64,000 bases of DNA from Candidatus Portnoybacteria bacterium RBG_19FT_COMBO_36_7 (lineage in GTDB: Bacteria > Patescibacteriota > Minisyncoccia > Portnoybacterales > GWB1-42-6), in assembly GCA_001819495.1 (NCBI GenBank), contig MHMW01000028.1, positions 5,398-69,397 on the forward strand. Direction: 5' to 3'. The position numbers and the translations under genes are program-made. Every line of letters starts with the position of its first letter. The first letter of the stretch is position 1. The notes beneath the pieces were generated by a model that saw nothing but the letters and a program-made list of their open reading frames with translations, made no database searches and was not told the DNA's origin. Positions 6,343 through 29,256 of this stretch are shown here, piece after piece.

Positions 6343-6888
6343 TTAAGATTTTTTCTTTCTGTATTCTTCTTTAAATTTCAAAAATTTATTTTTAAGATCG
6401 TTAAATTTTTTTATACCGATATTCCAAGAGTCTAATCCTTTATCAAAAATAACAAATTGATGATAAGCAATCTGTATAGCACCTTCCTCGGGATTAACAA
6501 TATACCACTTGCTATCAATAAAACATTCGGCAAAAATATGCCCTTCAATGTATTTTTCGTCTCCTATATCTAACCATTTTCGCCTTATTGCCTCAACATA
6601 TACGGTAGGGATTTTTCTTACCCTGGCAAAAGCAATAAAAACCAAGGCATAATCAGTGCAGCCGGTGGTGACTTTGCTTTTTATTATTTCATCCGCTGTT
6701 CTCTTTCTAAAAAATTTTTTCTTAAATTCAACTGAATCTGTATCTTTGATATTTTTCTGCACCCATTGTAGCATCTCAAAAATAAGTTCAAGCCCCTCGT
6801 TTTTAAAAGTCGAGGCTATCTCAATAATTTTAGGTGTAATTTCGGTCTGCTGACCACTTTTTAAATATTTTTTAATTTGTTTATTCAT
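6343..6888 (-). CDS. Transglutaminase-like cysteine peptidase domain protein.
   Basis: GCTDYALVF (Cys), GHIFAEC (His) and a downstream Asp give the Cys-His-Asp transglutaminase-like core. Confidence 0.6.
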   Translation of the reverse strand: MNKQIKKYLKSGQQTEITPKIIEIASTFKNEGLELIFEMLQWVQKNIKDTDSVEFKKKFFRKRTADEIIKSKVTTGCTDYALVFIAFARVRKIPTVYVEAIRRKWLDIGDEKYIEGHIFAECFIDSKWYIVNPEEGAIQIAYHQFVIFDKGLDSWNIGIKKFNDLKNKFLKFKEEYRKKKS

Positions 6889-6949: not shown

Positions 6950-8050
6950 TCACACAGTCGACAACGAATGGTCTAATTCCATAATCGCAGACTTCATGTG
7001 TCTAAGTATCTTCTTTGTAGCTGAACAAAAATAGTTGAGAGATGATAATAATTGGCCATTGATATACCGATAATAGGTACAACCTCCATTGCAGATATTA
7101 GCCCATTCACAACTTAAACATTCCTTCTTCGATGCTTGAATCTCGCCCTTAAGACTCTTCCACTTTTTTGAACACAACAAGCTTTTCAGAGTTTTCTCCA
7201 TTATATTGCCGATTCTGAACTTATCAATGCCTACAAATCTGCCGCATAAATATAGGTCACCGTTGTAATCAAGCGCAAGATAAGCAGCGCACTCATTGGC
7301 GCAATGACAAATAGTCGGTCGCCCTCCGATCAGCCCTTGAAAATAACTTTCTAACGGCTGAATTTTAATATCTGGGTCGTCCTTTGCCATCCAGCAGTCG
7401 AAAATTCTGATCATGAAACTCGCATATCCAAGGGGGGTGATAGAAAAACTGGCCATCTTTCCATTCTCTTTCTCGGCACACACCGATAAATTGAGCCTGC
7501 CGAGACCGGAACTAACAAAAAAATCCCATATAGCATCTACGTTTTTTGCCGCATTTTTTGTGATAACAGAAATGATACCCGGATTAAAACCATTAACCTT
7601 CAGTACCTCGATTCCTTTCATTACTCTTTCAAATGACCCACTACCATTGAATATTTTTCGAAATTGATCATGAATCTTTTTGGGTCCATCTAAGCTTACT
7701 CCGATTTTAAATGCATTCTTTTTGAAAAATGCTGCCCATTCTTGATCAATTAAAGTACCGTTTGTCTGGACACTATTTAGATATTGTTTGCCTTTCAGGT
7801 ATCTGGCTTGGAAACCAACTGCTGCTTCGTAAAAATTTATTCCGGCAATCAACGGTTCGCCCCCGTGCCAGACGAAAGAAAAACTGTTTTCGTCAAGCTC
7901 TGATAACTGACAAATAAAAGTCTCGAGAAGACGTATATCCATCTTCAGCTTTTTTTCTTCTTTCGTTTTCGACCACAGATTGCTATTGTAACAATAATCA
8001 CATCTTAAATTACACAAAACAGAAACTGGTTTCATGATAAAGGTCAGCAT
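6950..8050 (-). CDS. Radical SAM/SPASM enzyme of the anSME (anaerobic sulfatase-maturating enzyme) family. I think it more likely a peptide-modifying maturase here.
   Basis: KPVSVLCNLRCDYC (CX3CX2C), FVWHGGEPLIAG, SVQTNGTLIDQEW...GVSLDGPKKIHDQFRK, and SPASM cysteines CHCANEC...CGRF...CLSCEWANICNGGC. Collinear, by recollection, with Clostridium anSME, which carries these same four motif blocks. AGGAGGA lies upstream of the ATG. Confidence 0.8.
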   Translation of the reverse strand: MLTFIMKPVSVLCNLRCDYCYNSNLWSKTKEEKKLKMDIRLLETFICQLSELDENSFSFVWHGGEPLIAGINFYEAAVGFQARYLKGKQYLNSVQTNGTLIDQEWAAFFKKNAFKIGVSLDGPKKIHDQFRKIFNGSGSFERVMKGIEVLKVNGFNPGIISVITKNAAKNVDAIWDFFVSSGLGRLNLSVCAEKENGKMASFSITPLGYASFMIRIFDCWMAKDDPDIKIQPLESYFQGLIGGRPTICHCANECAAYLALDYNGDLYLCGRFVGIDKFRIGNIMEKTLKSLLCSKKWKSLKGEIQASKKECLSCEWANICNGGCTYYRYINGQLLSSLNYFCSATKKILRHMKSAIMELDHSLSTV

Positions 8051-12270: not shown

Positions 12271-12711
12271 ATGGGCAAAGATCAAAACTGCGTTTTTTGT
12301 GAAGCTAAAAACAAAAAACTACAAAAGATTGCCGAAATTGGGACAATTGAGATTTGGTATCCAAACTCTCCCGTTATAATGGAGCATGTTATTTTAATTC
12401 CTTCCCGCCACGTAGAAAAAATTGAAGAATTATCAGATCAAGAAGCAAAGGATCTAATCGTTGCTGTCAGAAAAATTGTAAATAGCTTCAAAAAACTATA
12501 CAATACCGATGGTTTTAATCTTTTTACAAATGAAGGACAAAGCGCCGGCCAGCATATTAGACACATCCATTTCCACTATTTTGGCCGTTCCAAAAATGAA
12601 AAAATCAGCCCGCTTGAAATATTAAATAATCAAAAATCATATAAAAGAGAAAAATTGTCTGATAAGCAAATTAAGCAACTGATCAATAAGATCAAAAGAG
12701 CAATATTATGA
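12271..12711 (+). CDS. HIT-family hydrolase.
   Basis: Histidine triad HIRHIHFHYFG. Confidence 0.75.
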   Translation: MGKDQNCVFCEAKNKKLQKIAEIGTIEIWYPNSPVIMEHVILIPSRHVEKIEELSDQEAKDLIVAVRKIVNSFKKLYNTDGFNLFTNEGQSAGQHIRHIHFHYFGRSKNEKISPLEILNNQKSYKREKLSDKQIKQLINKIKRAIL

Positions 12712-13569: not shown

Positions 13570-13995
13570 ATGACAAATATAGCATCCGTCGTTCGCGGAA
13601 TTATCTTAAAAGAAGATAAAATCCTATTATGTAAATTAAAGGGGGCTGATTACTATTTTTTCCCGGGCGGCCGGATTGAGTTTGGCGAAACGGCACAACA
13701 AGCATTGGAACGCGAGCTGAAAGAAGAATTGGAACTGTCTGCCGAAAAATTTGAATATATAGGCACAATAGAAAACTTCTTTTCGGAAAAAGGTAATAAA
13801 TATCACGAAATCAATCTTGTATTTCACGTTGAAGCCGAAAATGCCACAGACAAAACTCCAGAAGACCATTTAGAGTTTTTCTGGAAAGACATAAATAAGC
13901 TCGTAGGGGAAAATATCGAGCCAACTGCCTTAAAAAACACCTTCCTCAAATGGCTCAAAGATAAAAAATTATTCTGGGGAAGTGAAAAAGAATAA
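13570..13995 (+). CDS. NUDIX hydrolase.
   Basis: Nudix box GGRIEFGETAQQALERELKEELEL. Confidence 0.8.
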   Translation: MTNIASVVRGIILKEDKILLCKLKGADYYFFPGGRIEFGETAQQALERELKEELELSAEKFEYIGTIENFFSEKGNKYHEINLVFHVEAENATDKTPEDHLEFFWKDINKLVGENIEPTALKNTFLKWLKDKKLFWGSEKE

Positions 13996-14004
13996 AATAC
14001 TATT

Positions 14005-14235
14005 ATGGATAAATGTATATTTTGTAAGATCATAAATAAAAAAGTTCCAGCTAAAATAGTTTACGAGGACAATAAAGTGATCTGTTTTTTACCTAAAAAG
14101 ATGGAAGTTTACGGGCATACTTTAATTGTGCCCAAAAAGCACTACGCAGACATATATGATATTCCAGAAGAAAAATTTAGCTATATCATCAAGACCGCGA
14201 AAAAATTGGCTGTAAATCCGGATGTGCAAACATAA
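14005..14235 (+). pseudogene. Truncated HIT-family gene: N-terminal 76 aa only, lacking the HxHxH triad.
   Basis: CIFCKII...VYED...GHTLIVPKKH is the HIT N-terminal half. The ORF ends before the catalytic triad and about 210 bp of AT-rich non-coding DNA follows. Confidence 0.5.
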
Positions 14236-14855: not shown

Positions 14856-15052
14856 GATCCGTGGGAAAATCAATATGGAGGCTAATTTATAAAATACTGC
14901 CTCCATATTTTTTTATGTAATCATCTTTTTTAAAAAAATTATTAAATTCCAGCCCAGAACGGGCTTTTTATTTTAGATATTAATCAAATTGTATAATTAC
15001 CAAATAATCTTGACTTATTTTATTATTAGTGTTACTATTTTAAAATAAGCTT

Positions 15053-16177
15053 ATGTTACCTGATTATATAAAAAAGAACATAATTCATGATGACAAAGTA
15101 TTCGCTTCTTTTAAAAACAGAGGGTCTTTTAATATACCATCATATAATCCAAAAGAACATTACAAGCATTTAACGAATAGCAAATATTATTATGCTCTTA
15201 TCGCGTTTAGACATCATTTGAAATCAGTTTCAGATTATTATTTCGGCATAAAGCAAAGGGCAAAGAATATTGACCTTTTTATGCTAACTCCGAGTATATC
15301 TTCTCCGATGGGCCCTGGATCTAGCTCAGAACCAATCAAAATACAATTAGGCAAGATAAAAACTTGTCTTGTAGATTCGTCACAATTCGGCCTCGAACCA
15401 CTCCTCTTAAATAAATCTAATAAAGTATATTGCTATCTACCTTCCATGCGGGGGGAGGACTGTGACCATCGACATCTTAATCAATTCTATCACTGCGAGT
15501 TTGAAATGATTGGTAAATTCGATGAATTGGTGCCTATTATTGAAGACTACATAAAACACCTGTCTGCCGCTATTTTGCTGATGCGAAATATTGTAGATAA
15601 AATCAGCGGCGACCCAACAAAAACAAAGGCAATGATGATAAAAATAATAAAAACAGATAGATTTCCTGAAATTTCGTTTGATGAAGCGACGAACATCCTC
15701 ATAAAAAATAAAGGGGAAAATTATGTAAATATCACGCGTCACGGAAAAGATATCAGCTGTCAAGGAGAAATAGAAATCATGAAAGCTTTAAAAGTTGATA
15801 CGCCTTTATGGATTAGATATTTTGACCGAGACAGGGTTCCTTTTTATCAAAAACCAGATCCTAAAAGCCCCAACAAAACCATAAATGCCGACCTGCTTTT
15901 CCCTCCAATTGTAAAAAATTCTTTTGGCGGTGAAATTGTCGGCTCGGGGCAAAGACAGGATTCTCCTAGAGAAATACATGAATCGTTAAAGAGACAAAAT
16001 AATATCTCCCCAAAACCTTACGAGTGGTATATCAATTTACGGAAATTGCCAGGATATAAAACAACATCGGGATTTGGGCTGGGAATAGAAAGATTTATTG
16101 CTTGGGCCCTAGCCAAGCAAAACATCAGAGATGTTATTTTGTATCCCCGAATTAAAAATGTTGAAACTTATCCTTAA
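15053..16177 (+). CDS. Class IIb aminoacyl-tRNA-synthetase catalytic-core paralog lacking an anticodon-binding domain (AsnA/AS-AR-like or EpmA/PoxA-like amino-acid ligase).
   Basis: Motif 2-like MRGEDCDHRHLNQFYHCEFEM (compare FRxE....RHLxEF..E.E) and motif 3-like GFGLGIERFIAWALAKQNIRDVILYPR. Confidence 0.55.
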   Translation: MLPDYIKKNIIHDDKVFASFKNRGSFNIPSYNPKEHYKHLTNSKYYYALIAFRHHLKSVSDYYFGIKQRAKNIDLFMLTPSISSPMGPGSSSEPIKIQLGKIKTCLVDSSQFGLEPLLLNKSNKVYCYLPSMRGEDCDHRHLNQFYHCEFEMIGKFDELVPIIEDYIKHLSAAILLMRNIVDKISGDPTKTKAMMIKIIKTDRFPEISFDEATNILIKNKGENYVNITRHGKDISCQGEIEIMKALKVDTPLWIRYFDRDRVPFYQKPDPKSPNKTINADLLFPPIVKNSFGGEIVGSGQRQDSPREIHESLKRQNNISPKPYEWYINLRKLPGYKTTSGFGLGIERFIAWALAKQNIRDVILYPRIKNVETYP

Positions 16178-16193
16178 TCATCAACTAAAACAT

Positions 16194-17261
16194 ATGCCTC
16201 AATCAGAAAATAAAAAATGGCATTGGCAATTAAAAAACAGCATCAAAACGGGTGAACAATTGGCAAAATACATAAACCTAACAGATAAAGAGAAACGAGA
16301 CATAAAGAAAGTTACTGAAACTTATAAAATGTCCATCACCCCCTATTACGCTTCACTTATGGATAAAAACGATTCTAATTGCCCCTTACGAAGAATGGTT
16401 ATACCTAATATCGCCGAACTAGATAGTCCACCCGCAATACCCGACCCTAACAAAGAAAAGTCTTTTGAAAAGGCCACGGGCTTAAGACAAGAGTTTAAAG
16501 AAAAATGTACTATCCTGCTGACTTTAATGTGCCCCAATTATTGCAGGCACTGTTTTAGAAAATATTGGGTTGGAAGAGTGAATAGTGTTTTAACCAACCG
16601 ACAGATAGATGAAGTGGTGAAGAAGATTAACAGCAATAAAAACATAGAAGAGGTATGTATTTCTGGGGGAGATCCGCTTATTTTGTCTAATGATCGTATT
16701 GACTACGTTTTAACCAAGCTCAAAAAAATTAAGCATGTTGATGTTGTAAGATTATATACTAGAACTTTAGTATTTCTGCCACAAAGAATAACTGATAATT
16801 TAATAAAAGTCCTTAAGAAGTACCCAACACTCTATATCTGCACCCATTTTAATCATCCAAAAGAACTGACTAAAGAATCAATAGCCGCCTGCAGAAAAAT
16901 AGCAGATAATGGAATACCTATTTTTAATCAGTCAGTTTTATTAAAGGGGGTCAATGATAACTCCAAAACGATGAAAGATTTGCTTTGGGGCTTAGTAAAA
17001 AATAAAGTAAAACCTCTTTACCTTCAACATTGCATAAAAACTATGGGTAATGACTATTTAGTTACTAAAATAGATGTAGGACAAAAAATTATCAAAGATC
17101 TTTATTGCCATATGTCTGTATTGGGAATCCCTCTATATGATGTTATTTTATATTCAGGCAAGGTTTTAATGATGCCCGACTACGTAAAGAAAGATAAAAA
17201 TGGAAGGCGATTTTTTACTAATTTACTCGAGGAAAAATTTTACATTGATAAATTAGAATAA
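16194..17261 (+). CDS. KamA-family radical SAM aminomutase (lysine 2,3-aminomutase / EpmB-like). The ORF-track start at 16131 overlaps the upstream gene; ATGs at 16158 or 16194 are the plausible starts.
   Basis: CPNYCRHCFRK (KamA-type CX3CX2C with CRHCFR), WHWQL...ITPYYASLMD N-terminal KamA signature. Confidence 0.75.
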   Translation: MPQSENKKWHWQLKNSIKTGEQLAKYINLTDKEKRDIKKVTETYKMSITPYYASLMDKNDSNCPLRRMVIPNIAELDSPPAIPDPNKEKSFEKATGLRQEFKEKCTILLTLMCPNYCRHCFRKYWVGRVNSVLTNRQIDEVVKKINSNKNIEEVCISGGDPLILSNDRIDYVLTKLKKIKHVDVVRLYTRTLVFLPQRITDNLIKVLKKYPTLYICTHFNHPKELTKESIAACRKIADNGIPIFNQSVLLKGVNDNSKTMKDLLWGLVKNKVKPLYLQHCIKTMGNDYLVTKIDVGQKIIKDLYCHMSVLGIPLYDVILYSGKVLMMPDYVKKDKNGRRFFTNLLEEKFYIDKLE

Positions 17262-17269
17262 TAAATTCT

Positions 17270-18454
17270 ATGGAGAATTTTGAACATGTAAAAAAAGAAG
17301 GTAATTTGCCCGAGGAATTTGAACAAGGGGAAATTTTTAAGTATCAAGAATTTATTAAACAAACCTATATTGAAAGTTTTTCAGAAAAAAATTTTAGCGT
17401 CCATGAAAGCATAGATCTGGTAGCTGGCAAAACAGATTCCAGTATTTTATTTATCGGTTCAACAATAAGTGCATTAAAACCTTTATATATGAATAATGAA
17501 ATTCCGCCAAACGGGGTTGTAATCAATCAACCTTGTATTAGAACTCATAATTTAAAAAATATATATTCCGAACAGTCTAATAAAGGTAATACTTTTTTTA
17601 ATCTTATGGGCGGCATGTCAGAAGCAGATAGATTTTCAGATATCTACAAATTGTCTTTACAGTATTTTATTGAATCCTTAAATATTAATCGCGATCGTCT
17701 TTTTATTAGGGCTACTTCCGAAGATAAAGATATTTTGGAAAATTTAAAATCCGAAAAAGATCACCCAGAGTTAGAGTTGGATGGGAGACAACCGGATTAT
17801 TATAGATGGAGATATGGTATCAAGGGTGTCTCTGGCAGAGGAATTGCCCTTGCAATTCGTAATGCTGTTAATCAAAAAGAATCTATGACATTGGGTAATA
17901 TTATTATTATGGAAAGCGATGATCACCCCAAAACTGTTCAGTGGGGATACGGAGTTGAATCAATAATTAGCGGCATTTACAACAAAGATAGAGCTATTGA
18001 AGGATCTTTAATCAGCCAAGTGGTGCCATATGAAATTGGTCTAAAATCAAAATTCGCAGATGCATTGGCAGCAGTAATAGAAATGTACAATTCGGGATTG
18101 AAGCCAAACAACCGAGGAGCCGCCAGCTATTTGAAGGCTTATCTTAGAGGAATGTCCTATCTGATAAATAAATTAAATATTGAAAAAAATACACTAAAGG
18201 AGTACGTTTCGGAGTATTGTAAATTAAGAAACATCAATGATGCAGGCTTTATTTACGATGAAATAGTTAATGGCATAAACGACCACGATGATAGTGTTAA
18301 TAAAATGGTTCAAGCTTTGAAGGAAAAATATCTGTCTGAAACGAAAAAAATAACTAATTCAAAAAAGGCAGTTAATAAACTCAGCAATAAATATAGGATA
18401 CATCCTGAGGAAGTAGTAATTATTATAGATAATTTATTTGCAAAAAAAGATTAA
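17270..18454 (+). CDS. Stand-alone alanyl-tRNA-synthetase catalytic-domain-like protein, with no editing or C-terminal domains.
   Basis: QPCIRTHNL...NTFFNLMGGMSEADRFSDIYK aligns to the AlaRS motif QKCIRT.D...HHTFFEMLGN.SFGDYFK. Confidence 0.45.
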   Translation: MENFEHVKKEGNLPEEFEQGEIFKYQEFIKQTYIESFSEKNFSVHESIDLVAGKTDSSILFIGSTISALKPLYMNNEIPPNGVVINQPCIRTHNLKNIYSEQSNKGNTFFNLMGGMSEADRFSDIYKLSLQYFIESLNINRDRLFIRATSEDKDILENLKSEKDHPELELDGRQPDYYRWRYGIKGVSGRGIALAIRNAVNQKESMTLGNIIIMESDDHPKTVQWGYGVESIISGIYNKDRAIEGSLISQVVPYEIGLKSKFADALAAVIEMYNSGLKPNNRGAASYLKAYLRGMSYLINKLNIEKNTLKEYVSEYCKLRNINDAGFIYDEIVNGINDHDDSVNKMVQALKEKYLSETKKITNSKKAVNKLSNKYRIHPEEVVIIIDNLFAKKD

Positions 18455-18467
18455 TAATTTTTATGAT

Positions 18468-19232
18468 ATGAAAATAATAGTAGCAATCAGCGGGGGAGAA
18501 ATAGGTAGGCCTGGCTATCCTGTCGAGACAACAGAAATTGACAAAGAAATAATAAAATTAAGCGGGAAAAAGAGAGCTAATTTGCTTTTTATTCCCACAG
18601 CCAGTTCTGATGCAGAAGGATATGTAGAAACTGTAAAAAAACATTTTGGCGAAAGATTGGGTTGTAGGGTTGATGTACTGTATTTAATTAATTCAGGTAT
18701 AGTCAAAAAAGAAATTGGAAAAAAGATTTTTTCCTCAGATATTATTTATGTTGGTGGAGGGAATACATTAAAAATGCTCAAAGTCTGGAAAAAAAATGGT
18801 GTAGATAAAATTTTGAAAAGGGCCTGGAAACGAAAAATTGTTATATCTGGATTGAGCGCAGGGGCAGTTTGTTGGTTTAAATATTTTAACTCAGATTCAA
18901 AAAAGTTTATAAAAGGAAAGAATAATTATCAATTAATAAAATTAAAGGGATTAGGTTGGCTAAACGCATCTTTTTGTCCCCACTATGATACGGAAGAAAA
19001 AAGAAAACGCCATTTAAAAAAAATGATGTTAAAAACACCGGGAATCGCTTTGGCTGTTGATAATTGCTGTGCGGTAATAATAGAAAATGATAAATATCAA
19101 GTGATATCATCAAAAAGGACTGCGAATGCTTATAAAGTATTCTGGTTGAACAAAAAATTCTATCAAATAAAAATAAAAAAAGTGAAATTGTTTAAGCCAC
19201 TAGGTGAATTGCTTAAAAAAACAAATATTTAA
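18468..19232 (+). CDS. Peptidase S51 (PepE dipeptidase E / cyanophycinase family). The ORF-track start at 18438 is a TTG; I prefer the ATG at MKIIVAISGG.
   Basis: IPTASSD...IIYVGGGNTLKMLKVW...ISGLSAGAV, the S51 Ser nucleophile context. Confidence 0.65.
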   Translation: MKIIVAISGGEIGRPGYPVETTEIDKEIIKLSGKKRANLLFIPTASSDAEGYVETVKKHFGERLGCRVDVLYLINSGIVKKEIGKKIFSSDIIYVGGGNTLKMLKVWKKNGVDKILKRAWKRKIVISGLSAGAVCWFKYFNSDSKKFIKGKNNYQLIKLKGLGWLNASFCPHYDTEEKRKRHLKKMMLKTPGIALAVDNCCAVIIENDKYQVISSKRTANAYKVFWLNKKFYQIKIKKVKLFKPLGELLKKTNI

Positions 19233-19369
19233 GCATGTGCTTGATGAAAAACTTCAAAGGCAGGTGTGTTTTTGCAAAGCTCTACTACAATAGATACCAT
19301 CTCTTAATCACCTCTTTCCTGGCATCTTAAACTTACGAAATCCGAGATTTTTAAATTTTTTATAGCATT

Positions 19370-20194
19370 ATGAATAGACAATTGACAGAAAAAGATATTA
19401 TTGACATGAGCTACGTTGATTTTTTAGCTCTATTAAATGAAACTAACAGGCCGCCAGGCGGTAAAGATTCGGTTAGGAGAATTGCTATTAATTCATTTAT
19501 TGATTCGAACTCGCGCGTTCTTCATTCTGGGTGCAATACTGGTTACTGTAGTTTTGAAATAGTCCATTTAGTAAAGTGTAATGTTGTAGCTATTGATATT
19601 AATAAGAATATGGTATTAGCGGCTAAAAACAAGCTGAAGCTGGAACCTAATTTGTTTAAGAAAAAATTCTCATTCCAAGTTGGCGACGCTCATAAACTTA
19701 AGTTTAAAAGCGATAGCTTTGATCTTGTGTTTTCAGGTGGATCAACTGCGTTTATGTCTGACCCTTCACGCGTAGTTAGGGAATACAAAAAAGTCTGTAA
19801 ACCATATGGTTTTGTAGGTGATATGTGCCTATTTTATAAAAAATTACCGCCGACAAATCTGCTAAATAAAGTTAATAAATTACTGAATATCAAAATAAAG
19901 CATTGGGGAAAAGAGTATTGGCTTTCTTTGTACAATAACGAAGACCTGGAATTATACTATGATTATACAAATGACATGCCATATGATCCAACCAATAAAA
20001 AAATTAGAGAATACTCAAAAAAAATGGTTGAATTATCACTAGATAATTATCCAAACAATGTAAAAAGGGTTGCTGTGGAAAAATTATTTGAATATATGAC
20101 ATTATTTAATAAAAATAATAAGTATTTAAGTTACTGCGTGTTGTTATTCAGAAAAGATATTTCAAGAAAACAAATTTCATTATTTGGAAAATAA
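19370..20194 (+). CDS. Class I SAM-dependent methyltransferase.
   Basis: Motif I VLHSGCNTGYCSFEI and motif post-I VAIDIN. Confidence 0.65.
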   Translation: MNRQLTEKDIIDMSYVDFLALLNETNRPPGGKDSVRRIAINSFIDSNSRVLHSGCNTGYCSFEIVHLVKCNVVAIDINKNMVLAAKNKLKLEPNLFKKKFSFQVGDAHKLKFKSDSFDLVFSGGSTAFMSDPSRVVREYKKVCKPYGFVGDMCLFYKKLPPTNLLNKVNKLLNIKIKHWGKEYWLSLYNNEDLELYYDYTNDMPYDPTNKKIREYSKKMVELSLDNYPNNVKRVAVEKLFEYMTLFNKNNKYLSYCVLLFRKDISRKQISLFGK

Positions 20195-20407
20195 TTTAGT
20201 TTATAATGAATCATTAAAAAATCCAAAAAATTAAAACTGGGTGATGAATAATTAAAGAAAAGAGCAAAAGCAGTTTTGACCTAACACTGAAATAGCCTCT
20301 AAAAGGGGCTTTTTCTTTTTAGTTAAAGTTTGGTATAATATAATCAAATTCCCATTTTAGGGCTATATTAATTATGCTAACGACCGAATTTTGGAGGGGA
20401 TATCCAA

Positions 20408-20446: not shown

Positions 20447-21598
20447 ATGCCCCTAATCAATATCAAATCTCTCATCTTGCTGATCGTCGCGCTGCTCAAT
20501 CTGTCGCTGGGCATTTTGGTGTTCTTCAAAAACAAAAAGGATAAAATAAACATCTATTACGCTTTCACTGCCTGGAGCACTGCTGGCTGGGCATTCGGTT
20601 TGGCTATGTTCTATATGATAAGCGATCTGAATATTGCCCTGCTCTGGTATGAATTAGTCGCTTATGTCTCTGCCGCTTTAATTGGCGCCAGCTTCCTTTC
20701 CTTCTCTTTTGTTTTCCCTTTTGTTAAAGAAAAGCCAAAAACAATCTTTAAAATTATATTTTTCATATTCACTGCTTTTATTCTGGTTATCACCGTCTGG
20801 CCAAAATTAATGATACCCAGAATTGTTGAAAACTCTTGGGGCAGAGGAGGAGAACTAACGGTTTATTACAATTTCTATGTTGTCTATTTCACCATGTGCA
20901 TGATCGGCGCATTCGGCAATTTCATCCAGAAATACAAAAGTGCTGACGAGTCGCAAAAAATCCAAATAAAATATGTCTTTGCCGGAACTCTGACTGCCGC
21001 AATCTGGGGCACATTATGTAATCTTTTCTTGCCCTGGTTCAAAATATATGCGCTAATGTGGGCTGGTCCATATCTTACAGTTGCTATGGTTGGACTAATC
21101 GCTTATGCTGTTCTTAAGCACCATCTGATGAACATCAAAGTCATCGCCACTGACTTTGCCGTTGGGGTAATGGGAGCAATATTATTGATATTGCCTTTTT
21201 TTATGCCAAATAACCTGCTAAGATTCCTAACTGGAGCAATTTTTATTCTATTCTGTTTTTTTGGCTACTATTTGATAAAAACCACTTATGAGCAAGCCCG
21301 GCGCAAAGAAGAAGCCCAAAAAATCGCTATTCAGGAAAGGTTTTCGAAAGAAGAGGCGATCTGGAGCGCCCGGCAACTCCAAAGATTCAATGAAACATTA
21401 GAACAAAGCGTTAAACTGAGGACAAAAGAACTAGAACAAGCAAAAAATATTGCAGAGCAAAAGGCCAAAGAAGCAGAAAGCAAAAGAGAAGAGCTCGAAA
21501 AATTCTATGAAGTCACTGTAGGCCGGGAACTAAAAATGGCGGAGTTAAAGAAAAAGATTAAAGAAATGGAGGAAAAATCAGAGGAAGAAAATAAATAA
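20447..21598 (+). CDS. HisKA_7TM-type membrane sensor protein without a kinase domain. It has an N-terminal 7-TM domain, a coiled coil, and a C-terminal GRELKMAELKKKIKEMEE tail.
   Basis: The TM domain is paralogous to 22252-23862 (FAGTLTAAIWGTLCNLFLPWF...GLIAYAVLKHHLMNIKVIATDFA vs LIGTLATATIGIFFNLLLPIF...GFIAYAVIRHHLFDIKVIATEIF). The C-terminal LRTKELEQAK linker is followed by the RELKM motif. Confidence 0.6.
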   Translation: MPLINIKSLILLIVALLNLSLGILVFFKNKKDKINIYYAFTAWSTAGWAFGLAMFYMISDLNIALLWYELVAYVSAALIGASFLSFSFVFPFVKEKPKTIFKIIFFIFTAFILVITVWPKLMIPRIVENSWGRGGELTVYYNFYVVYFTMCMIGAFGNFIQKYKSADESQKIQIKYVFAGTLTAAIWGTLCNLFLPWFKIYALMWAGPYLTVAMVGLIAYAVLKHHLMNIKVIATDFAVGVMGAILLILPFFMPNNLLRFLTGAIFILFCFFGYYLIKTTYEQARRKEEAQKIAIQERFSKEEAIWSARQLQRFNETLEQSVKLRTKELEQAKNIAEQKAKEAESKREELEKFYEVTVGRELKMAELKKKIKEMEEKSEEENK

Positions 21599-21607
21599 TA
21601 TATTTAA

Positions 21608-22234
21608 ATGAAAGACAAACATAAAATCTCTTTTTTCTTTTTCTTAAAAGCTTGTTTTAAATTTAGAGCTAGACAAATATCTAGTCCCGAAGAATTGTCA
21701 GCAGCATACAAATTAAGAAAGGTAATTTATTCTGACCTCCTGAAATGGGTATCATGTAACGAAGAACAAGAAACGGATGAATACGATAAATATGCAACTC
21801 ATTTCGGGGTATTTAATAAACATGACGTTGTGGCTTATTGCAGATTAATAATAGCAGTTAATCCCACAATGTTAGAAAATAATTTTAAAATGATTTTAGG
21901 GAAAGAGAAAATACGGAAAGAAAAAGATACTGCTGAAATTTCCCGCCTAACTCTAGACAGAAAGTTTATAGGTAATCGACGCGGAAAAATAATTCAAGCT
22001 CTTCTTTATAGAAAAATTTTTCACTGGTCAAGGCAAAATGGAATTAAATTTTGGTATATAGTAGTCAGAGAAGGATTTTTCAACAATCTAAAAGCTAATT
22101 TTGACTGCCAACAAATAGGAAAAACCTATTATTTCAAAGAAAATGACTCCGCTATTGCGGCAATAATTGATTTACAAAAATCTCTAGAATTTGTTCGACG
22201 AACCAATAAATTTCTATATTGGTGGTATAAATAG
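21608..22234 (+). CDS. LuxI-family autoinducer-synthase-fold protein (acyl-homoserine-lactone synthase-like / N-acyl amino acid synthase-like GNAT).
   Basis: Aligns to the conserved LuxI/LasI blocks LR..VF......W...E.D.YD, CRL...T.P.ML.N.F and E.SRF: LRKVIYSDLLKWVSCNEEQETDEYD, VVAYCRLIIAVNPTMLENNF, TAEISRLTLD. Confidence 0.55.
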   Translation: MKDKHKISFFFFLKACFKFRARQISSPEELSAAYKLRKVIYSDLLKWVSCNEEQETDEYDKYATHFGVFNKHDVVAYCRLIIAVNPTMLENNFKMILGKEKIRKEKDTAEISRLTLDRKFIGNRRGKIIQALLYRKIFHWSRQNGIKFWYIVVREGFFNNLKANFDCQQIGKTYYFKENDSAIAAIIDLQKSLEFVRRTNKFLYWWYK

Positions 22235-22251
22235 CACTTTTAAGCTTAACT

Positions 22252-23862
22252 ATGTCAAGTATATTAACGCCCAATATAGTTTCTTTATTGATAACCACTG
22301 CCTTTAATGTGCTCTTGGCATTTTTTATTTTGTCAAAAAACAGAAAAAGTCCAGTTAACCGAATATTCAGTTTCTTGGCTTTAGGTGTAGCTCTTTGGTC
22401 TTTCACAAATATAGCTACTCAGATCGTAAAAACTGTCCATCAAGGCATTCTTTGGTCACAAATAAGTTATTTAAGTACCCTTATAATTGCGGTCTCTTTC
22501 TTTTTGTTCTCTATTATTTTTCCGGAAGAAGAAAAAATGAGCAAAAGCAGATTTTTTATTCCTGTAATTATTGCCGCGATAGTCACTTCCGTATTATTAT
22601 TCATCCCTAAATTTGTTATTGAAACCGTGACACTTTCTCCTTGGAAAATCATGACTAATCGAGGCGCCTATCTTTATACGGCATCGTTTGTAGGAATGCT
22701 GCTTTTTTCTTTCGGAAATATTTTAAGAAAATATCGCCAACTCAAAGGAGAACAAAAAGCCCAAATAAAATTCGTATTGATTGGCACACTCGCGACAGCA
22801 ACAATTGGGATATTTTTTAATTTATTACTACCGATATTTTTTAATTACTATGGCCTTGTCTGGTTTGGTCCAAACGCCGGCCTAGTCATGGTCGGCTTTA
22901 TAGCTTACGCGGTAATAAGGCATCACCTGTTTGATATTAAAGTAATCGCGACTGAAATTTTCAGTATTTTAATTTCGCTTTCTGCCTTAATTGATGCCCT
23001 ACTTTCGCAGACACCAACAGAATTTACATTAAAATTTCTACTTTTTTCGGCAATTTCTTTGTTCAGTATTCTATTGATTCGGGGAGTCTTAAAAGAAGTG
23101 AAAACTAGAGAACAACTTGCGGCACTAACAGAAAAATTACAAAAAGCAAATGATGATCTGCAAAAATTGGATAAGGCCAAAAGCGAGTTTATATCCATTG
23201 CTTCCCATCAGCTCCGCACTCCTTTATCCGTGATAAAAGGTTTTGTTTCCATGCTGATTGAGGGCTCCTATGGCAAGATTCCCGATAAAGGCAAAGAAAT
23301 TCTGTCCAAAATAGGGGCCAGCTCCGACCGCTTAAACAGACTTATTGACGACCTGCTTGACTTATCGCGCATGGAGGGCGGCCAGATGAAATACGAATGG
23401 AATTTTATCAATCTGGCCGAATTGGCTGGCAGCGTGGTTGATGAGCTCCAGCCCCAGGCCGACAAAAAAGGCATTAATTTCAAATGGCTCAATCAGGCGC
23501 CAGAAAAAATGTTCGTCAGAGCCGACAAGGAAAAATTAAGGCAGGTTGTCATGAACCTGATTGACAATGCCATCAAATACACATCCAAGGGATTTGTTGA
23601 AGTAAAACTGGTCAAGACGCCCGAAAATCAGGCAAGATTATCGGTTAAGGATTCGGGAGTGGGCATGGACCAGGAAGAAATGAATCTGATTTTCGGCAAA
23701 TTCGTGCGCGGCAAAAAAACGCCTCGGCTCTGGACCGAGGGAGTGGGTTTGGGGCTCTATGTGGCGCGCAAAATTTTAGAAGAGCACAAAGGCAGCGTCT
23801 GGGCAGAGAGCGAAGGAGAAGACAAAGGCAGCACGTTCTTTATGGAAATACCGGTTTACTAA
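22252..23862 (+). CDS. Sensor histidine kinase (HisKA_7TM N-terminal membrane domain plus HisKA plus HATPase_c).
   Basis: H-box ISIASHQLRTPLSVIKGF, N-box VMNLIDNAIKYT, G-boxes DSGVGM and GVGLGLYVARKI. The N-terminal 7-TM domain is paralogous to 20447. Confidence 0.85.
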   Translation: MSSILTPNIVSLLITTAFNVLLAFFILSKNRKSPVNRIFSFLALGVALWSFTNIATQIVKTVHQGILWSQISYLSTLIIAVSFFLFSIIFPEEEKMSKSRFFIPVIIAAIVTSVLLFIPKFVIETVTLSPWKIMTNRGAYLYTASFVGMLLFSFGNILRKYRQLKGEQKAQIKFVLIGTLATATIGIFFNLLLPIFFNYYGLVWFGPNAGLVMVGFIAYAVIRHHLFDIKVIATEIFSILISLSALIDALLSQTPTEFTLKFLLFSAISLFSILLIRGVLKEVKTREQLAALTEKLQKANDDLQKLDKAKSEFISIASHQLRTPLSVIKGFVSMLIEGSYGKIPDKGKEILSKIGASSDRLNRLIDDLLDLSRMEGGQMKYEWNFINLAELAGSVVDELQPQADKKGINFKWLNQAPEKMFVRADKEKLRQVVMNLIDNAIKYTSKGFVEVKLVKTPENQARLSVKDSGVGMDQEEMNLIFGKFVRGKKTPRLWTEGVGLGLYVARKILEEHKGSVWAESEGEDKGSTFFMEIPVY

Positions 23863-26403: not shown

Positions 26404-27726
26404 TTAGGGGGTAAGCCTATTAACACCCCTATATAGATACGTAACTTCACGTACGTTCTTAAAGCCGAGCAAAACCATTAACATACGCGTAAGCCCGAAT
26501 CCATATCCTCCGTGAGGCGGACATCCATACTTGAAGAAGTCTAAATAGTATTGAATCGATTCAGGCCTGAGGCCTTTCTCTTTAATCTGCTTCAGCAGGA
26601 TATCGTATCTGTGTTCTCGTTGAGCTCCAGTGGTAACTTCAAGCCCCTTCCATATTAAATCAAAGCTTTTTGTGATCGTTGGCTCGTCTTCGTATCTCAT
26701 ATGATAGAACGGCCTGACAGAGATAGGATAATCGGTGACGAATACAAATTCATGTTTATAGTGTTCTTTAATGTACTTGGCAAGCAGTCTCTCTCCTTCT
26801 GGATCCAAGTCACCTTTACTGCCCCTGTCTATCGTATGACCTATCTTTTCCAATATTTTATAAGCCTCTGCCATCTTTATTCTTGGAAAAGGTAAATCTG
26901 GCACGATCACTTCTTCTTTGAACATTTCTTTGATCCGTTCTCCGTGCTCCTCCTTTATACCTTTCAATATTTCATGGAGCCATTGCTCTTCAAGGTGCAT
27001 GACGTCTTCGTGAGATTTAATCCAGGATATCTCCACATCAACACTCGTAAACTCTGTATCGTGCCTTGAAGTAAAAGAAGGGTTAGCTCGAAAAACGGGC
27101 CCGATCTCAAAAACTCTGTCAAACCCTGCTGCCATAGCCATCTGTTTGTAAAACTGAGGTGACTGGGCAAGGTATGCATATTTGCCGAAATATTCGACTC
27201 TGAATAATTCGGCACCGGATTCACTCGCACTTCCCATGAATTTAGGCGAATGGATTTCAATAAATCCGTTCTTGATCCAGAAATTACGCATCTCTTGTTC
27301 AATCGTGGTTTGGACCTGAAATACGAGCAAGTTCGATGGCTGCCGCAAATCTAAGAATCTCCAATCCAGACGATTTTCTAGGGAAGTCTCTTTCGGATCG
27401 ATTGGCAGCGGCGACATGGCTAAATTCAATATTTTGATCTCATCAATCACAATCTCTATCTGTTGGAGTTTCACCTGATCATTTTTAACCACGACCCCAG
27501 AAATTTCAATTGCAGACTCCGACGTAAGACTGTCGATTAATTTCTCGATAGGATCATCGCCACCTTTACGTTCATGAATTGCCTGGACAAGACCCGTTTT
27601 ATCCCGGACAATGATAAATTGCATCTTTTTTTGTTTGCGGATAGCATGAACCCATCCATCAATAGTGGTTTTTTCGTTAATCTTCTCTTTCAGTTTTCCG
27701 ATTAAAGTCCTCTTCATACCTTTCAC
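26404..27726 (-). CDS. aspS: Class IIb aminoacyl-tRNA synthetase, archaeal/eukaryal-type short form, most likely aspartyl-tRNA synthetase.
   Basis: N-terminal OB anticodon-binding fold, motif 2 FRANPSFTSRHDTEFTSVDVE, motif 3 GGYGFGLTRMLMVLLGFKNVREV, and AGGAGGTGA RBS. Confidence 0.6.
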   Translation of the reverse strand: MKGMKRTLIGKLKEKINEKTTIDGWVHAIRKQKKMQFIIVRDKTGLVQAIHERKGGDDPIEKLIDSLTSESAIEISGVVVKNDQVKLQQIEIVIDEIKILNLAMSPLPIDPKETSLENRLDWRFLDLRQPSNLLVFQVQTTIEQEMRNFWIKNGFIEIHSPKFMGSASESGAELFRVEYFGKYAYLAQSPQFYKQMAMAAGFDRVFEIGPVFRANPSFTSRHDTEFTSVDVEISWIKSHEDVMHLEEQWLHEILKGIKEEHGERIKEMFKEEVIVPDLPFPRIKMAEAYKILEKIGHTIDRGSKGDLDPEGERLLAKYIKEHYKHEFVFVTDYPISVRPFYHMRYEDEPTITKSFDLIWKGLEVTTGAQREHRYDILLKQIKEKGLRPESIQYYLDFFKYGCPPHGGYGFGLTRMLMVLLGFKNVREVTYLYRGVNRLTP

Positions 27727-27766: not shown

Positions 27767-29095
27767 CTACGGCGCGACTTTCCGCCCAAACGTCCGAAAG
27801 AAAGGAATTGTATCCCGAACATGGGGAATACGTAGAAGCCACCGAATAAATCTTTCAATCCCCATACCAAATCCAATATGGGGGACGCAGCCGTATTGCC
27901 TTAAATCTCGTAACCACTCATATTGAGGATTGCCAAGTTTTCCTTTTTCTTTCATTCGTTCATCCAGCATCGCCAGATCATGAATCTTTTCTGCTACTCC
28001 CAATATTTCTCCAAATCCTTCGGTTGCTATTAGGTCGGCCGTTTTAGTTACCCTCGGATCGTTTGGGTTAATAACGTACGGGAAAGGTTCTACGCTGCGT
28101 GGGATACCGATTACCCAGAAAGGCTTCTGAAAATGATTTGATAAAAAGGCCTCTTCTTCTGTGCCTAAACTTTTACCAAATTCAAATTCAAATCCATTTC
28201 TCTGAAGCAGCGAAACGGCTTCAGTATAGCTAATGCGATCGTAGGGTGTATCTTTCCCAGCATCGCAAAGTATAGATCCCAAAGTTTTTAATAGTTCTCC
28301 CGCTTCTTCGCAGCAACGCTGGGTGACATCTTTTATAAGACTTTCAACAATATACATGATGTCATCCAGATTACCGAACGCAACCTCTGCTTTTAGATGC
28401 CAATATTCCATTAAATGCCTCTTGCTTTTGCTTTCTTCCCCGCGAAAGCTAGGCCCAATGTTATATACTTTCTCAAAAGCATGAACTGCGCTTTCTAAAT
28501 AGAAACCTACGCACTGGGTCAAAAATATATCCTGATCGTGTACTCTTAACGGAATTGCGGATCGGTCTTCATAAAGCGGTGTTGGGGTTAATACTGGCGC
28601 AGTAATTTCAATGAAACCGTTATTGCGAAACCACTGATGTATTATCCCCATAGCTATGTGTCGAAAACGCAATATCGCCATTAATTTTTCATTGCGCAGA
28701 TAGAAATGGCGATTGTTCATCAACTGCTCTTGGATCTTGGGCTCAAAAATATCAATTTCGCCACGCGGTTGCGGAAATATCTGAATTGTGGCCAAACCAA
28801 TAATCTCTATGCGATCAACAGAAATCTCACGCGCTAATCCTGTTCGTATAATCTTCTTCCTCAAAACGCCCTCTACTTTAATTGATGATTCTGGGGTCAC
28901 TTTTGTTGCCACATCGAAGTCACTTGGAATAACTTTTGCCCTTTCTACTACGGCCTGTATACAACCAGTAGAATCACAAATATCAAGAAATATGACCTTA
29001 CCATGCTTTCTCTTTGCCTTTACCCATCCTAATAATACTATCTTAGTATCTAGATTAACTCTTTCTTTCAAATCTACTATATACAGCTCTTTCAT
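27767..29095 (-). CDS. asnS: Asparaginyl-tRNA synthetase (class IIb). I place the start at MKELYIVDL, behind a strong AAGGAGG RBS, rather than the ORF-track 29116.
   Basis: Motif 2 FRGEESKSKRHLMEYWHLKAEVAFGNLDD closely resembles the AsnRS motif FRAE.S.TSRHLAEFWMLEPEVAF; motif 3 GFGMGIERFIRWLL...VRDTIPFPR. Confidence 0.6.
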   Translation of the reverse strand: MKELYIVDLKERVNLDTKIVLLGWVKAKRKHGKVIFLDICDSTGCIQAVVERAKVIPSDFDVATKVTPESSIKVEGVLRKKIIRTGLAREISVDRIEIIGLATIQIFPQPRGEIDIFEPKIQEQLMNNRHFYLRNEKLMAILRFRHIAMGIIHQWFRNNGFIEITAPVLTPTPLYEDRSAIPLRVHDQDIFLTQCVGFYLESAVHAFEKVYNIGPSFRGEESKSKRHLMEYWHLKAEVAFGNLDDIMYIVESLIKDVTQRCCEEAGELLKTLGSILCDAGKDTPYDRISYTEAVSLLQRNGFEFEFGKSLGTEEEAFLSNHFQKPFWVIGIPRSVEPFPYVINPNDPRVTKTADLIATEGFGEILGVAEKIHDLAMLDERMKEKGKLGNPQYEWLRDLRQYGCVPHIGFGMGIERFIRWLLRIPHVRDTIPFFRTFGRKVAP

Positions 29096-29256
29096 GACGT
29101 GCCTCCTTTTATTCATTTTTTAAGAAACTATCAGAATTTTAATCCTCTATAATACTAATTTCATAAAGAATTGTCAATATTTTGTTATGGTTCATTTACC
29201 TATTTAAAATACCTATAGTATAATATAATAAACAGATTAAATCTTAATTAAAACCT

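Follow-up and report, generated by a model that had tools for sequence, protein, structure and literature searches.

A candidate agrocin 84/microcin C-like operon built on aminoacyl-tRNA synthetase paralogues in a Portnoybacteria genome, and its relatives across the Candidate Phyla Radiation

The window analyzed here is a 64 kb stretch of DNA from Candidatus Portnoybacteria bacterium RBG_19FT_COMBO_36_7, a bacterium of the Candidate Phyla Radiation (CPR), in which five closely spaced open reading frames (ORFs) lie on the + strand between positions 15053 and 20194. On balance we consider it probable that these genes form an operon for the ribosome-independent synthesis of an acyl- or aminoacyl-phosphoramidate nucleotide of the agrocin 84 or processed microcin C type, resembling inhibitors of aminoacyl-tRNA synthetases (aaRSs), with a built-in hydrolase. 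By analogy with those antibiotics the product would most likely mimic an aminoacyl-adenylate and block protein synthesis. An earlier note on this DNA had placed the five genes at the same coordinates, and Pfam and NCBIfam matches, together with AlphaFold models for ORF 1 and ORF 3, bear out the folds that it named. Its proposal of a small biosynthetic pathway around aaRS paralogues is also supported, although the connection with the nucleotide antibiotics had been missed. The GenBank record annotates three of the genes, those for the alanyl-tRNA synthetase (AlaRS)-like protein, the S51 peptidase and the S-adenosylmethionine (SAM)-dependent enzyme, each as hypothetical.

The first gene, ORF 1 (15053-16177, + strand; 374 aa), encodes a paralogue of asparaginyl-tRNA synthetase (AsnRS) truncated to its catalytic core. 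As had been noted, motifs 2 and 3 are present and the anticodon-binding domain is not: the Pfam tRNA-synt_2 match (PF00152) is limited to residues 103-367, with no OB-fold. The best PDB matches by fold to its AlphaFold model (predicted local distance difference test score, pLDDT, 83.9) are AsnRS structures, and a profile of the family finds Pyrococcus AsnRS (1x54) best at E 2e-34, with AspRS at about 1e-16 and the archaeal-type asparagine synthetase AS-AR at 3e-9. Aligned with AgnA of the agrocin 84 plasmid pAgK84, ORF 1 is 32% identical over 370 positions, its full length (E 4e-49), and the two proteins have the motifs SSPMG.GSxS, L[VA]DS, FxH[CS]ExE and PFYQxP in common. Furthermore, the first Gln of the AsnRS QSxQ motif has become an invariant Asp throughout the family, and AgnA carries the same change. 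The pocket is of the AsnRS type, with Phe114 at the position of Lys198, which binds aspartate in AspRS, the AsnRS 'HxExE' segment kept as FYHCEFE, and the side-chain-binding Arg301 also kept. The family comprises 923 homologues; among the 120 matches listed, lengths are about 372 aa and identities 60-73%. Judged by these homologies, ORF 1 is derived from AsnRS and is AgnA-like, not EpmA. A published proposal has AgnA, a truncated AsnRS, forming the phosphoramide bond in agrocin 84 (PMC8323819), and by analogy we propose that ORF 1 makes a P-N linked acyl- or aminoacyl-adenylate.

The last gene points the same way. ORF 5 (19370-20194, + strand) has a class I SAM-dependent fold and is 30% identical to AgnB1 over 271 aa, its full length (E 2e-47), and 29% identical to E. 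coli MccD over 192 aa (E 4e-22); AgnB1 and MccD match each other at E 5e-29. These alignments place ORF 5 in the MccD/AgnB1 subfamily. In microcin C, MccD is known to alkylate the phosphoramidate with the 3-amino-3-carboxypropyl group taken from SAM, its substrate being a peptidyl-phosphoramidate nucleotide, and the methylation previously ascribed to this gene is better read as MccD-type alkylation of a phosphoramidate.

When one genome per species was scanned, the AgnA-like family turned up at 134 loci, mostly in Patescibacteria. The others lie on a Calothrix plasmid, in DPANN and other archaea, and in metagenome-assembled genomes (MAGs) labelled Bdellovibrionales, Micavibrio and Desulfobacteraceae. 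As a core of AgnA-, AgnB1- and MccF-like proteins, the set occurs in over 130 genomes at species level and in some 900 protein clusters, mainly from CPR bacteria. To survey gene neighborhoods, ORFs were called and labelled with seed proteins at 87 loci, the window included. Virtually all of these have a SAM-dependent enzyme, and MccD matches 20 of the 21 members of the ORF 5 methyltransferase subtype. The core consists of an AgnA-like protein, a SAM enzyme and an MccF-like hydrolase, usually joined by a second class II aaRS-like protein. This last is most often a member of an uncharacterized family of about 385 aa that we call c4 (30 loci), and is otherwise AlaRS-like (26 loci), LysRS-like (14 loci) or a ThrRS (4 loci). 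A common methyltransferase of about 280 aa, of the type found at locus L079 and different from the ORF 5 subtype, was considered as an AgnB1 or AgnC3 type and set aside, its similarity being confined to weak matches in the SAM motifs.

A metagenome scan with the KamA protein yielded independent sister contigs of the window (L091-L095 and L106). Contig L092 carries AsnRS-like, KamA, AlaRS-like, S51 and MccD-like genes in the order of the window; L091 has AsnRS-like, KamA, AlaRS-like, MccD-like and S66 genes; L093 and L094 carry the first three genes, both contigs stopping inside the third; and L095 and L106 have the same gene set rearranged, L106 being adjoined by a GNAT gene and a bona fide LeuRS. 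The recurrence of the same genes on independent metagenome contigs means that their grouping is not due to chance. The high identity of ORF 1 homologues across CPR, DPANN and other lineages, together with the low GC content of the island in which the operon lies (32-35% across 8-26 kb of the window, against 40-49% across 26-52 kb), indicates a mobile accessory module. The AgnA-type core in Patescibacteria is apparently a large and undescribed family: our literature searches returned reviews only, and nothing that connects CPR bacteria with agrocin-type genes or describes this family of aaRS paralogues.

The hydrolase slot of the cluster is filled by either of two peptidase families. An S66 peptidase adjoins the AsnRS-like gene in 80 of the 87 loci (about 90%), and the window instead has an S51 serine peptidase in this place, ORF 4 (18438-19232, + strand; PF03575, E 9e-47), in which Ser140, His182 and Asp208 were placed by alignment (the closest homologue, on L092, has Glu). 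Its best relative in the PDB is Listeria Lmo0363, not PepE. Among the sister contigs, L091 carries an S66 enzyme and L092 an S51 enzyme at the position seen in the window, so that the two families exchange within one type of cluster, the strongest argument for a common function. The S51 enzymes of the MccG type split processed microcin C at its carboxamide bond, while E. coli PepE gives no protection against this compound (Yagmurov et al., mBio 2022, PMC9239234), and both MccG and the S66 enzyme MccF are published as cleaving aminoacyl-phosphoramidate nucleotides. From the literature on both families and from the swap we infer that the S51 enzyme of the window is the functional equivalent of an MccF-type S66 peptidase, and its earlier reading as an enzyme that trims a dipeptide gives way to MccF/MccG-type hydrolysis of an aminoacyl-N(phosphoramidate) bond. 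Structures of MccF and MccF-like proteins align with the S66 partner from end to end (E 1e-47 to 1e-57); an assignment to the murein-recycling LD-carboxypeptidase LdcA was rejected, as this far weaker match (E 1e-8 to 1e-18) is confined to the N-domain. When 82 sequences are aligned with E. coli MccF, Ser118 and His311 are invariant and Glu243 is Glu or Asp, while Trp186, which in MccF stacks against the adenine when processed microcin C is bound, is Trp in 78 and aromatic in the remainder. A tblastn search of plasmids with the S66 protein matched agnC5 ('MccF-like') on pAgK84, and at the DNA level agnC5 had no match when searched against E. coli genomes.

The two remaining genes distinguish the window and its sister contigs. 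ORF 2 (16194-17261, + strand) encodes a KamA-family radical SAM/pyridoxal phosphate (PLP) 2,3-aminomutase, which passes the family model TIGR00238 (243.8 bits, cutoff 199.2) and falls under the cutoff of every equivalog, that is, glutamate, arginine and lysine 2,3-aminomutase and EpmB (194.5 against 369.3 bits for EpmB). The listed start at 16131 gives the overlap with ORF 1 that had been described, 47 nt, but a wrongly assigned start codon probably accounts for it: the part homologous to lysine 2,3-aminomutase (LAM) starts at residue 21, and the ATG at 16194, probably the true start, would leave a 17-nt gap. ORF 2 has the KamA fold, CxxxCxxC cluster and PLP lysine (K337 in LAM 2A5H) in common with LAM and with BlsG, the arginine 2,3-aminomutase of blasticidin S, and departs from both in the pocket. 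LAM has two lysine-binding aspartates, D293 and D330, of which BlsG keeps the first, and both are Ile in ORF 2; the orthologues on the sister contigs have likewise all lost the pair, with Ile or Val (HC[IV]KT) at D293 and Ile or Pro at D330, whereas distant relatives without the cluster keep Asp at both positions. The glycine loop is two residues shorter in the cluster-linked enzymes, a deletion also present in BlsG. On these features the cluster-linked aminomutases are a clade of their own. The loss of both lysine-binding aspartates implies that the substrate is not lysine and is unlikely to be arginine; it is possibly a neutral amino acid (Leu or Ala, say) or an acidic one held by the adjacent Lys. 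No annotated glutamate 2,3-aminomutase was found for pocket comparison among the 40 plasmid records listed, so an acidic substrate is still possible. Within the 87-locus survey the KamA gene occurs in the window only and is absent from the other 86 loci.

ORF 3 (17270-18454, + strand) matches the AlaRS N-terminal domain (PF01411) over residues 29-161 and lacks the editing and C-Ala domains. Its AlphaFold2 model (pLDDT 89.5) has AlaRS catalytic fragments as its top Foldseek matches (E 1e-13 to 4e-15), on which it superposes nearly end to end (TM 0.62-0.72). The motif-2 Arg is kept, the Asp that binds the alpha-amine in AlaRS (Asp235) is Gln, and the motif-3 Arg is Ser. Only 12 homologues are detectable, and the close ones adjoin the aminomutase gene in every locus read that has one (L091-L095 and L106). 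We propose that ORF 3 is a second ligase. Neither ORF 3 nor the c4 protein showed any BLAST similarity to AgnC1, and both were dropped as candidate AgnC1 homologues.

From these folds and homologies, the conserved synteny and the S66/S51 exchange we infer the chemical steps, the product and its target. In this scheme the AgnA-like core would bind an Asn-like substrate together with ATP and form a carboxamide-N-P linkage to adenosine monophosphate, either by MccB-like chemistry through an activated Asn and a succinimide or by direct N-adenylylation. The MccD/AgnB1-like enzyme would alkylate the resulting phosphoramidate. The aminomutase would supply a beta-amino acid from a non-basic amino acid, and the AlaRS-like ligase would attach it, probably capping the free amine. 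Finally, the MccG/MccF-like S51 hydrolase would protect the producer by cutting the aminoacyl-N bond in the toxic form that lacks the cap. A peptide made on the ribosome and modified after translation (RiPP) of the microcin C kind was considered and rejected. E. coli MccB, which is ThiF-like, matches nothing in any locus or in the window, and short upstream ORFs ending in Asn are not enriched (10 of 202, in 8 of 78 loci); with neither MccB nor an Asn-ending precursor, the P-N bond would have to come from the aaRS paralogue. Some loci have kinase, NUDIX and AdoMet decarboxylase genes and no second aaRS-like gene, which suggests that the AgnA-like enzyme makes the core compound by itself.

Two features of genomic context add to the case for a nucleotide antibiotic. 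LeuRS or LysRS genes abut some of the clusters, as AgnB2 does in the agn cluster, and the five genes sit in the low-GC island between terminator-like hairpins. The upstream hairpin (14951-14965, + strand) fits an operon boundary, the number of such sites equalling chance expectation, and the downstream one (20294-20310, + strand), which is likewise not above chance, lies 100 nt past ORF 5, between the five genes and a seven-transmembrane (7TM)/LuxI-like module.

Several observations weigh against this interpretation. The identities to AgnA, AgnB1 and MccD are no more than 29-32%, and ORF 4, which shares the S51 family with MccG, is at most a putative member of the MccG clade (clade V of Yagmurov et al.). 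ORF 3, without Asp235 and the motif-3 Arg, may activate no amino acid in the usual way. N220 and K247, through which MccF holds the Asp side chain, lack conservation across the S66 family, which leaves the acyl moiety uncertain. The 64-kb window contains no LeuRS or extra aaRS beyond an AspRS and a CPR-typical AsnRS-like gene, and the five-gene operon contains no exporter. The adjacency of aaRS genes to the clusters is only weakly above chance in small genomes, and the enrichment of kinases is modest too. As for the model system, the agrocin 84 pathway is unknown and AgnA has never been biochemically characterized (2021 review, PMC8323819); moreover, it is difficult to see how the Asn pocket retained in AgnA suits an antibiotic whose acyl group is leucine-like.

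It is this last difficulty that the most serious alternative addresses. Here the product class is the same and the hydrolase is biosynthetic: the AgnA-like enzyme would adenylylate the side-chain amide nitrogen of Asn, the S66 or S51 enzyme would remove aspartate to leave adenosine 5'-phosphoramidate, the MccD-like enzyme would alkylate it, and the second aaRS-like enzyme (in the window the AlaRS-like protein, fed by the aminomutase) would acylate the P-NH2 group, so setting both the amino acid and the target synthetase. The Campylobacter O-methyl-phosphoramidate pathway, in which glutamine donates the nitrogen, follows a parallel logic. Such a scheme would account for the near-invariant trio of AgnA-like protein, SAM enzyme and S66 peptidase beside a variable second aaRS-like protein, for the presence of the same trio in agn (AgnA, AgnB1 and AgnC5) with an Asn-type pocket in AgnA despite the leucine-like acyl group, and for the LeuRS, LysRS or ThrRS genes beside some clusters. 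Adenosine phosphoramide is, furthermore, the published product released by MccF and MccG from processed microcin C. The S66 pocket also co-varies with cluster architecture: across the S66 enzymes of 80 loci, the positions of MccF 220 and 247 are R and E in most AlaRS-like loci, and P and G, or E and E, in c4 loci. This variation could mirror different acyl groups, or it could reflect shared descent alone. However, the ligase-free loci are left unexplained, a biosynthetic MccF-type enzyme is without precedent, and canonical AsnRS geometry puts the alpha-carboxylate, not the amide, at the alpha-phosphate of ATP. We regard this alternative as unlikely, although still deserving attention.

Less probable is a pathway for a signaling molecule, or a pure resistance island, tied to a LuxI-like acyltransferase and 7TM kinases, in place of an antibiotic producer. 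Directly downstream of the operon, positions 20447-23862 (+ strand) hold in a row a 7TM protein that has no kinase domain, a LuxI/GNAT-like acyltransferase and a histidine kinase of the 7TM type, and the earlier note had suggested a functional link between this module and the five genes. At 15 of the 87 loci, the window included, a 7TM histidine kinase is indeed found no more than 8 kb from the core, and HIT, NUDIX and S51/S66 enzymes are all hydrolases that might do no more than detoxify foreign adenylate mimics. Nevertheless, the kinase alone recurs, in numbers that represent a modest enrichment; the LuxI-like gene stands beside no other locus of the survey or of the sister contigs, and hairpins bracket the operon and part the two modules. 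Resistance alone, moreover, would not call for an aminomutase together with AgnA-like and AlaRS-like ligases whose catalytic motifs are intact, and we judge both versions of this idea, and with them the suggested link, to be improbable.

More doubtful still is a role in primary or osmolyte metabolism, in which ORF 1 would be an asparagine synthetase of the AS-AR type and the other genes unrelated housekeeping functions (synthesis of a beta-amino-acid osmolyte, a dipeptidase and a methyltransferase). Beta-amino acids are known osmolytes, and the best NCBIfam match of ORF 1 is indeed an 'asparagine synthetase A' model, over residues 34-372. This match, however, reaches 145.9 bits against a cutoff of 389, the AS-AR structures trail AsnRS by many orders of magnitude in the profile comparison given above, and a Phe occupies the position of the Asp-binding Lys of AspRS. 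The strict linkage to MccF-like and MccD/AgnB1-like genes across phyla, and the cross-lineage identity and low GC that point to a mobile accessory module, are also difficult to reconcile with housekeeping, and we consider this reading very improbable. Least credible of all is modification of elongation factor P (EF-P) in the manner of EpmA/EpmB, or of another protein or tRNA, with the aaRS-like core transferring an aminomutase-made beta-amino acid to a macromolecule: some truncated aaRS paralogues do modify tRNA or EF-P and an aaRS core adjoining a KamA-family gene is the EpmA/EpmB layout, which had been recognized from the sequence, but ORF 1 is AsnRS-derived (EpmA/GenX models match at E 0.004-0.006 over some 30 residues only), the aminomutase is far under the EpmB cutoff, lacks both lysine-binding aspartates and is optional across the survey, the MccD-like and MccF/S51 enzymes would be left without a role, and, in line with the doubt already voiced about a plain EF-P pair, no EF-P domain was found among the window ORFs scanned.

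Returning to the nucleotide-antibiotic interpretation, the accessory genes of other loci include more parts of the microcin C type. Beyond the core and its second ligase, the survey found NUDIX genes at 13 of the 87 loci, HD phosphohydrolases at 9, APH-type kinases at 8, RlmN/Cfr-like radical SAM enzymes without the N-terminal domain at 7, HIT proteins and AdoMet decarboxylases at 4 each, and PLP decarboxylases, GNATs and major facilitator superfamily (MFS) pumps at 3 each. Across loci, the N-terminal domain of MccE matches the three PLP decarboxylases and MccC matches the MFS pumps. The RlmN/Cfr-like enzyme (L002:13023-13931 and 6 further loci; 301 aa, 197 bits against a cutoff of 290) is encoded between the S66 and LysRS-like genes and might methylate C2 or C8 of the product adenine, not rRNA. 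The LysRS-like operon member (L001:13979-15286 and about 10 further loci; 431-462 aa) scores 286 bits where the cutoff is 468, and in some cases (L032, L040 and L095) another LysRS of more typical kind comes after it. For c4, the commonest second partner (L079:4029-5186, - strand, and 29 further loci), the databases yield nothing beyond a weak match to motif 3 of HisRS (E 0.001). Directly 3' of three clusters lies a LeuRS gene for a protein of 632-635 aa (L014:8631-10538, L088:8263-10161 and L089:7446-9344) that aligns to full-length LeuRS in two blocks with the CP1 editing domain missing; the one of L088 and L089 passes the bacterial leuS cutoff. Full-length LeuRS genes stand beside L106 and L008. 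From their position, the LeuRS genes beside clusters are possible AgnB2-like immunity genes.

Within the window, the low GC content suggests that the operon lies with its HIT, NUDIX and sensor neighbors on a horizontally acquired island. Just 5' of ORF 1 is a promoter-like site (15010-15038, + strand; TTGACT-17-TACTAT with TG), a match to the consensus only and not enriched over shuffles. Upstream of the operon are a HIT-family hydrolase (12271-12711, + strand; PF01230, E 1e-16) and a NUDIX hydrolase (13570-13995, + strand; PF00293), possible accessory genes whose membership of the cluster is uncertain; the HIT protein is also a possible immunity gene, and the HIT hydrolase MccH is known from the literature to cut the P-N bond of processed microcin C. 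A 76-aa ORF (14005-14235, + strand) lying between the operon and the NUDIX gene aligns with the HIT domain over the 59 N-terminal positions alone, the histidine-triad end being missing, and looks like the remnant of a second HIT gene. Further away, a radical SAM-SPASM protein (6950-8050, - strand) adjoins a transglutaminase-like protein (6343-6888, - strand) as a possible peptide-maturase pair. About 20 kb from the operon, a TrbL/VirB6-like gene (38080-40179, + strand) and a TraC gene (43252-45096, + strand) indicate, by homology, a type IV secretion or conjugation-like apparatus.

The window also encodes two full-length synthetases of the same subclass, which had been described as canonical AspRS and AsnRS. 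This stands for AspRS (26404-27726, - strand), which passes the cutoff for non-discriminating aspartate--tRNA(Asn) ligase (506 against 353), and fails for the 'AsnRS' (27767-29116, - strand), which is under both NCBIfam asnS cutoffs (328 against 414 and 298 against 342.6) and has altered Asn-recognition residues: TQCVG for SQSxQ, WH[IL]KAE for WHLELE and G[IV]AEK for GGSQR. Given the non-discriminating AspRS, the organism may make Asn-tRNA by the indirect route, which renders the role of the unusual AsnRS-like gene next to it more puzzling. The altered pocket signature is kept in 119 CPR homologues of at least 57% identity, so that a whole CPR lineage of 'AsnRS' may recognize its amino acid differently. 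As the pocket is a trait of this lineage, the gene was ruled out as a dedicated resistant target.

CPR bacteria are regarded as poor in secondary metabolism and as living on other cells. If the products of these clusters inhibit aaRSs, they could plausibly serve episymbionts as a weapon or as a means of controlling the host. A broader interpretation, which we offer tentatively and hold to be less than evenly probable, is that ultrasmall episymbionts (Patescibacteria, with DPANN and predatory-labelled MAGs) widely carry a modular, ribosome-independent route to toxins that mimic aminoacyl-adenylates. An AgnA-type paralogue would forge the P-N bond, an MccD-type enzyme would decorate it, an interchangeable aaRS-like ligase of the AlaRS, LysRS, ThrRS or c4 type would set the amino acid or uptake cap, and an MccF/MccG-type hydrolase would provide immunity or release the phosphoramidate. 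The variant in the window would install a beta-amino acid through a 2,3-aminomutase of new specificity, agrocin 84 would be a rhizobial offshoot of this large family, and the toxins would possibly serve to arrest host translation. Should the products indeed inhibit aaRSs, they would also make up a set of natural adenylate mimics, possibly directed against different synthetases, and three to five small genes would offer a simple system in which to work out the P-N bond-forming step of agrocin-type antibiotics. New activities would include an AsnRS-derived N-adenylyltransferase, a 2,3-aminomutase for non-basic amino acids and a ligase made from an AlaRS fragment. The S66/S51 swap also gives independent backing to the recent claim that aminoacyl-nucleotides are substrates of S51 peptidases.

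The comparison with known systems places the operon between two antibiotics. A search against the anti-phage defence systems in PADLOC gave no meaningful match for the aaRS-like or peptidase genes, and a defence system was discarded as a candidate. Ascamycin, with its AlaRS-like AcmF, and phosmidosine, a prolyl N-acyl O-methyl-phosphoramidate of 8-oxoadenosine, are aminoacyl-nucleoside inhibitors of the aaRS type that resemble the proposed product by description and serve as leads only. Among aaRS paralogues, AS-AR (AsnRS2; PDB 3P8T and 1NNH) is also an AsnRS-derived core without an anticodon domain and acts on a free amino acid, not on tRNA; the similarity of ORF 1 to AS-AR is nevertheless far below that to AsnRS and under the NCBIfam cutoffs, and the gene context is different. 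EpmA/EpmB likewise pairs an aaRS core lacking the anticodon domain with a KamA-family aminomutase, but EpmA derives from LysRS and ORF 1 from AsnRS, and the pairing with an aminomutase is not conserved across the ORF 1 family. With the agrocin 84 cluster (agn on pAgK84 of Rhizobium rhizogenes K84), the window shares the truncated AsnRS and an AgnB1-type SAM enzyme, adjacent to it in agn. The MccF-like S66 enzyme AgnC5 has its counterpart in sister loci, where the window has S51 instead; NUDIX genes lie near both clusters (twice on pAgK84), and the LeuRS of some related loci recalls the resistant AgnB2. Related agn clusters known to the 2021 review were confined to one Ensifer strain and 19 actinobacterial genomes (PMC8323819). 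When AgnC1-C4, AgnC6, AgnC7, AgnD, AgnE, AgnF and AgnG were run against all loci with phmmer, they gave no matches or scattered weak ones, which argues that the 3'-deoxyarabinose and glucofuranosyl-phosphate chemistry of agrocin 84 does not occur here. The window in turn adds the aminomutase and the AlaRS-like ligase, and its host is a CPR bacterium, not a rhizobium. With microcin C (mcc), the window shares the MccD-type SAM transferase, the MccF/MccG-family hydrolase slot and an upstream HIT hydrolase, and other loci of the family add a decarboxylase like the MccE N-terminal domain, an MFS pump and GNATs. By these homologies, the system has its tailoring and hydrolase parts in common with microcin C and its presumed P-N-forming enzyme in common with agrocin 84.

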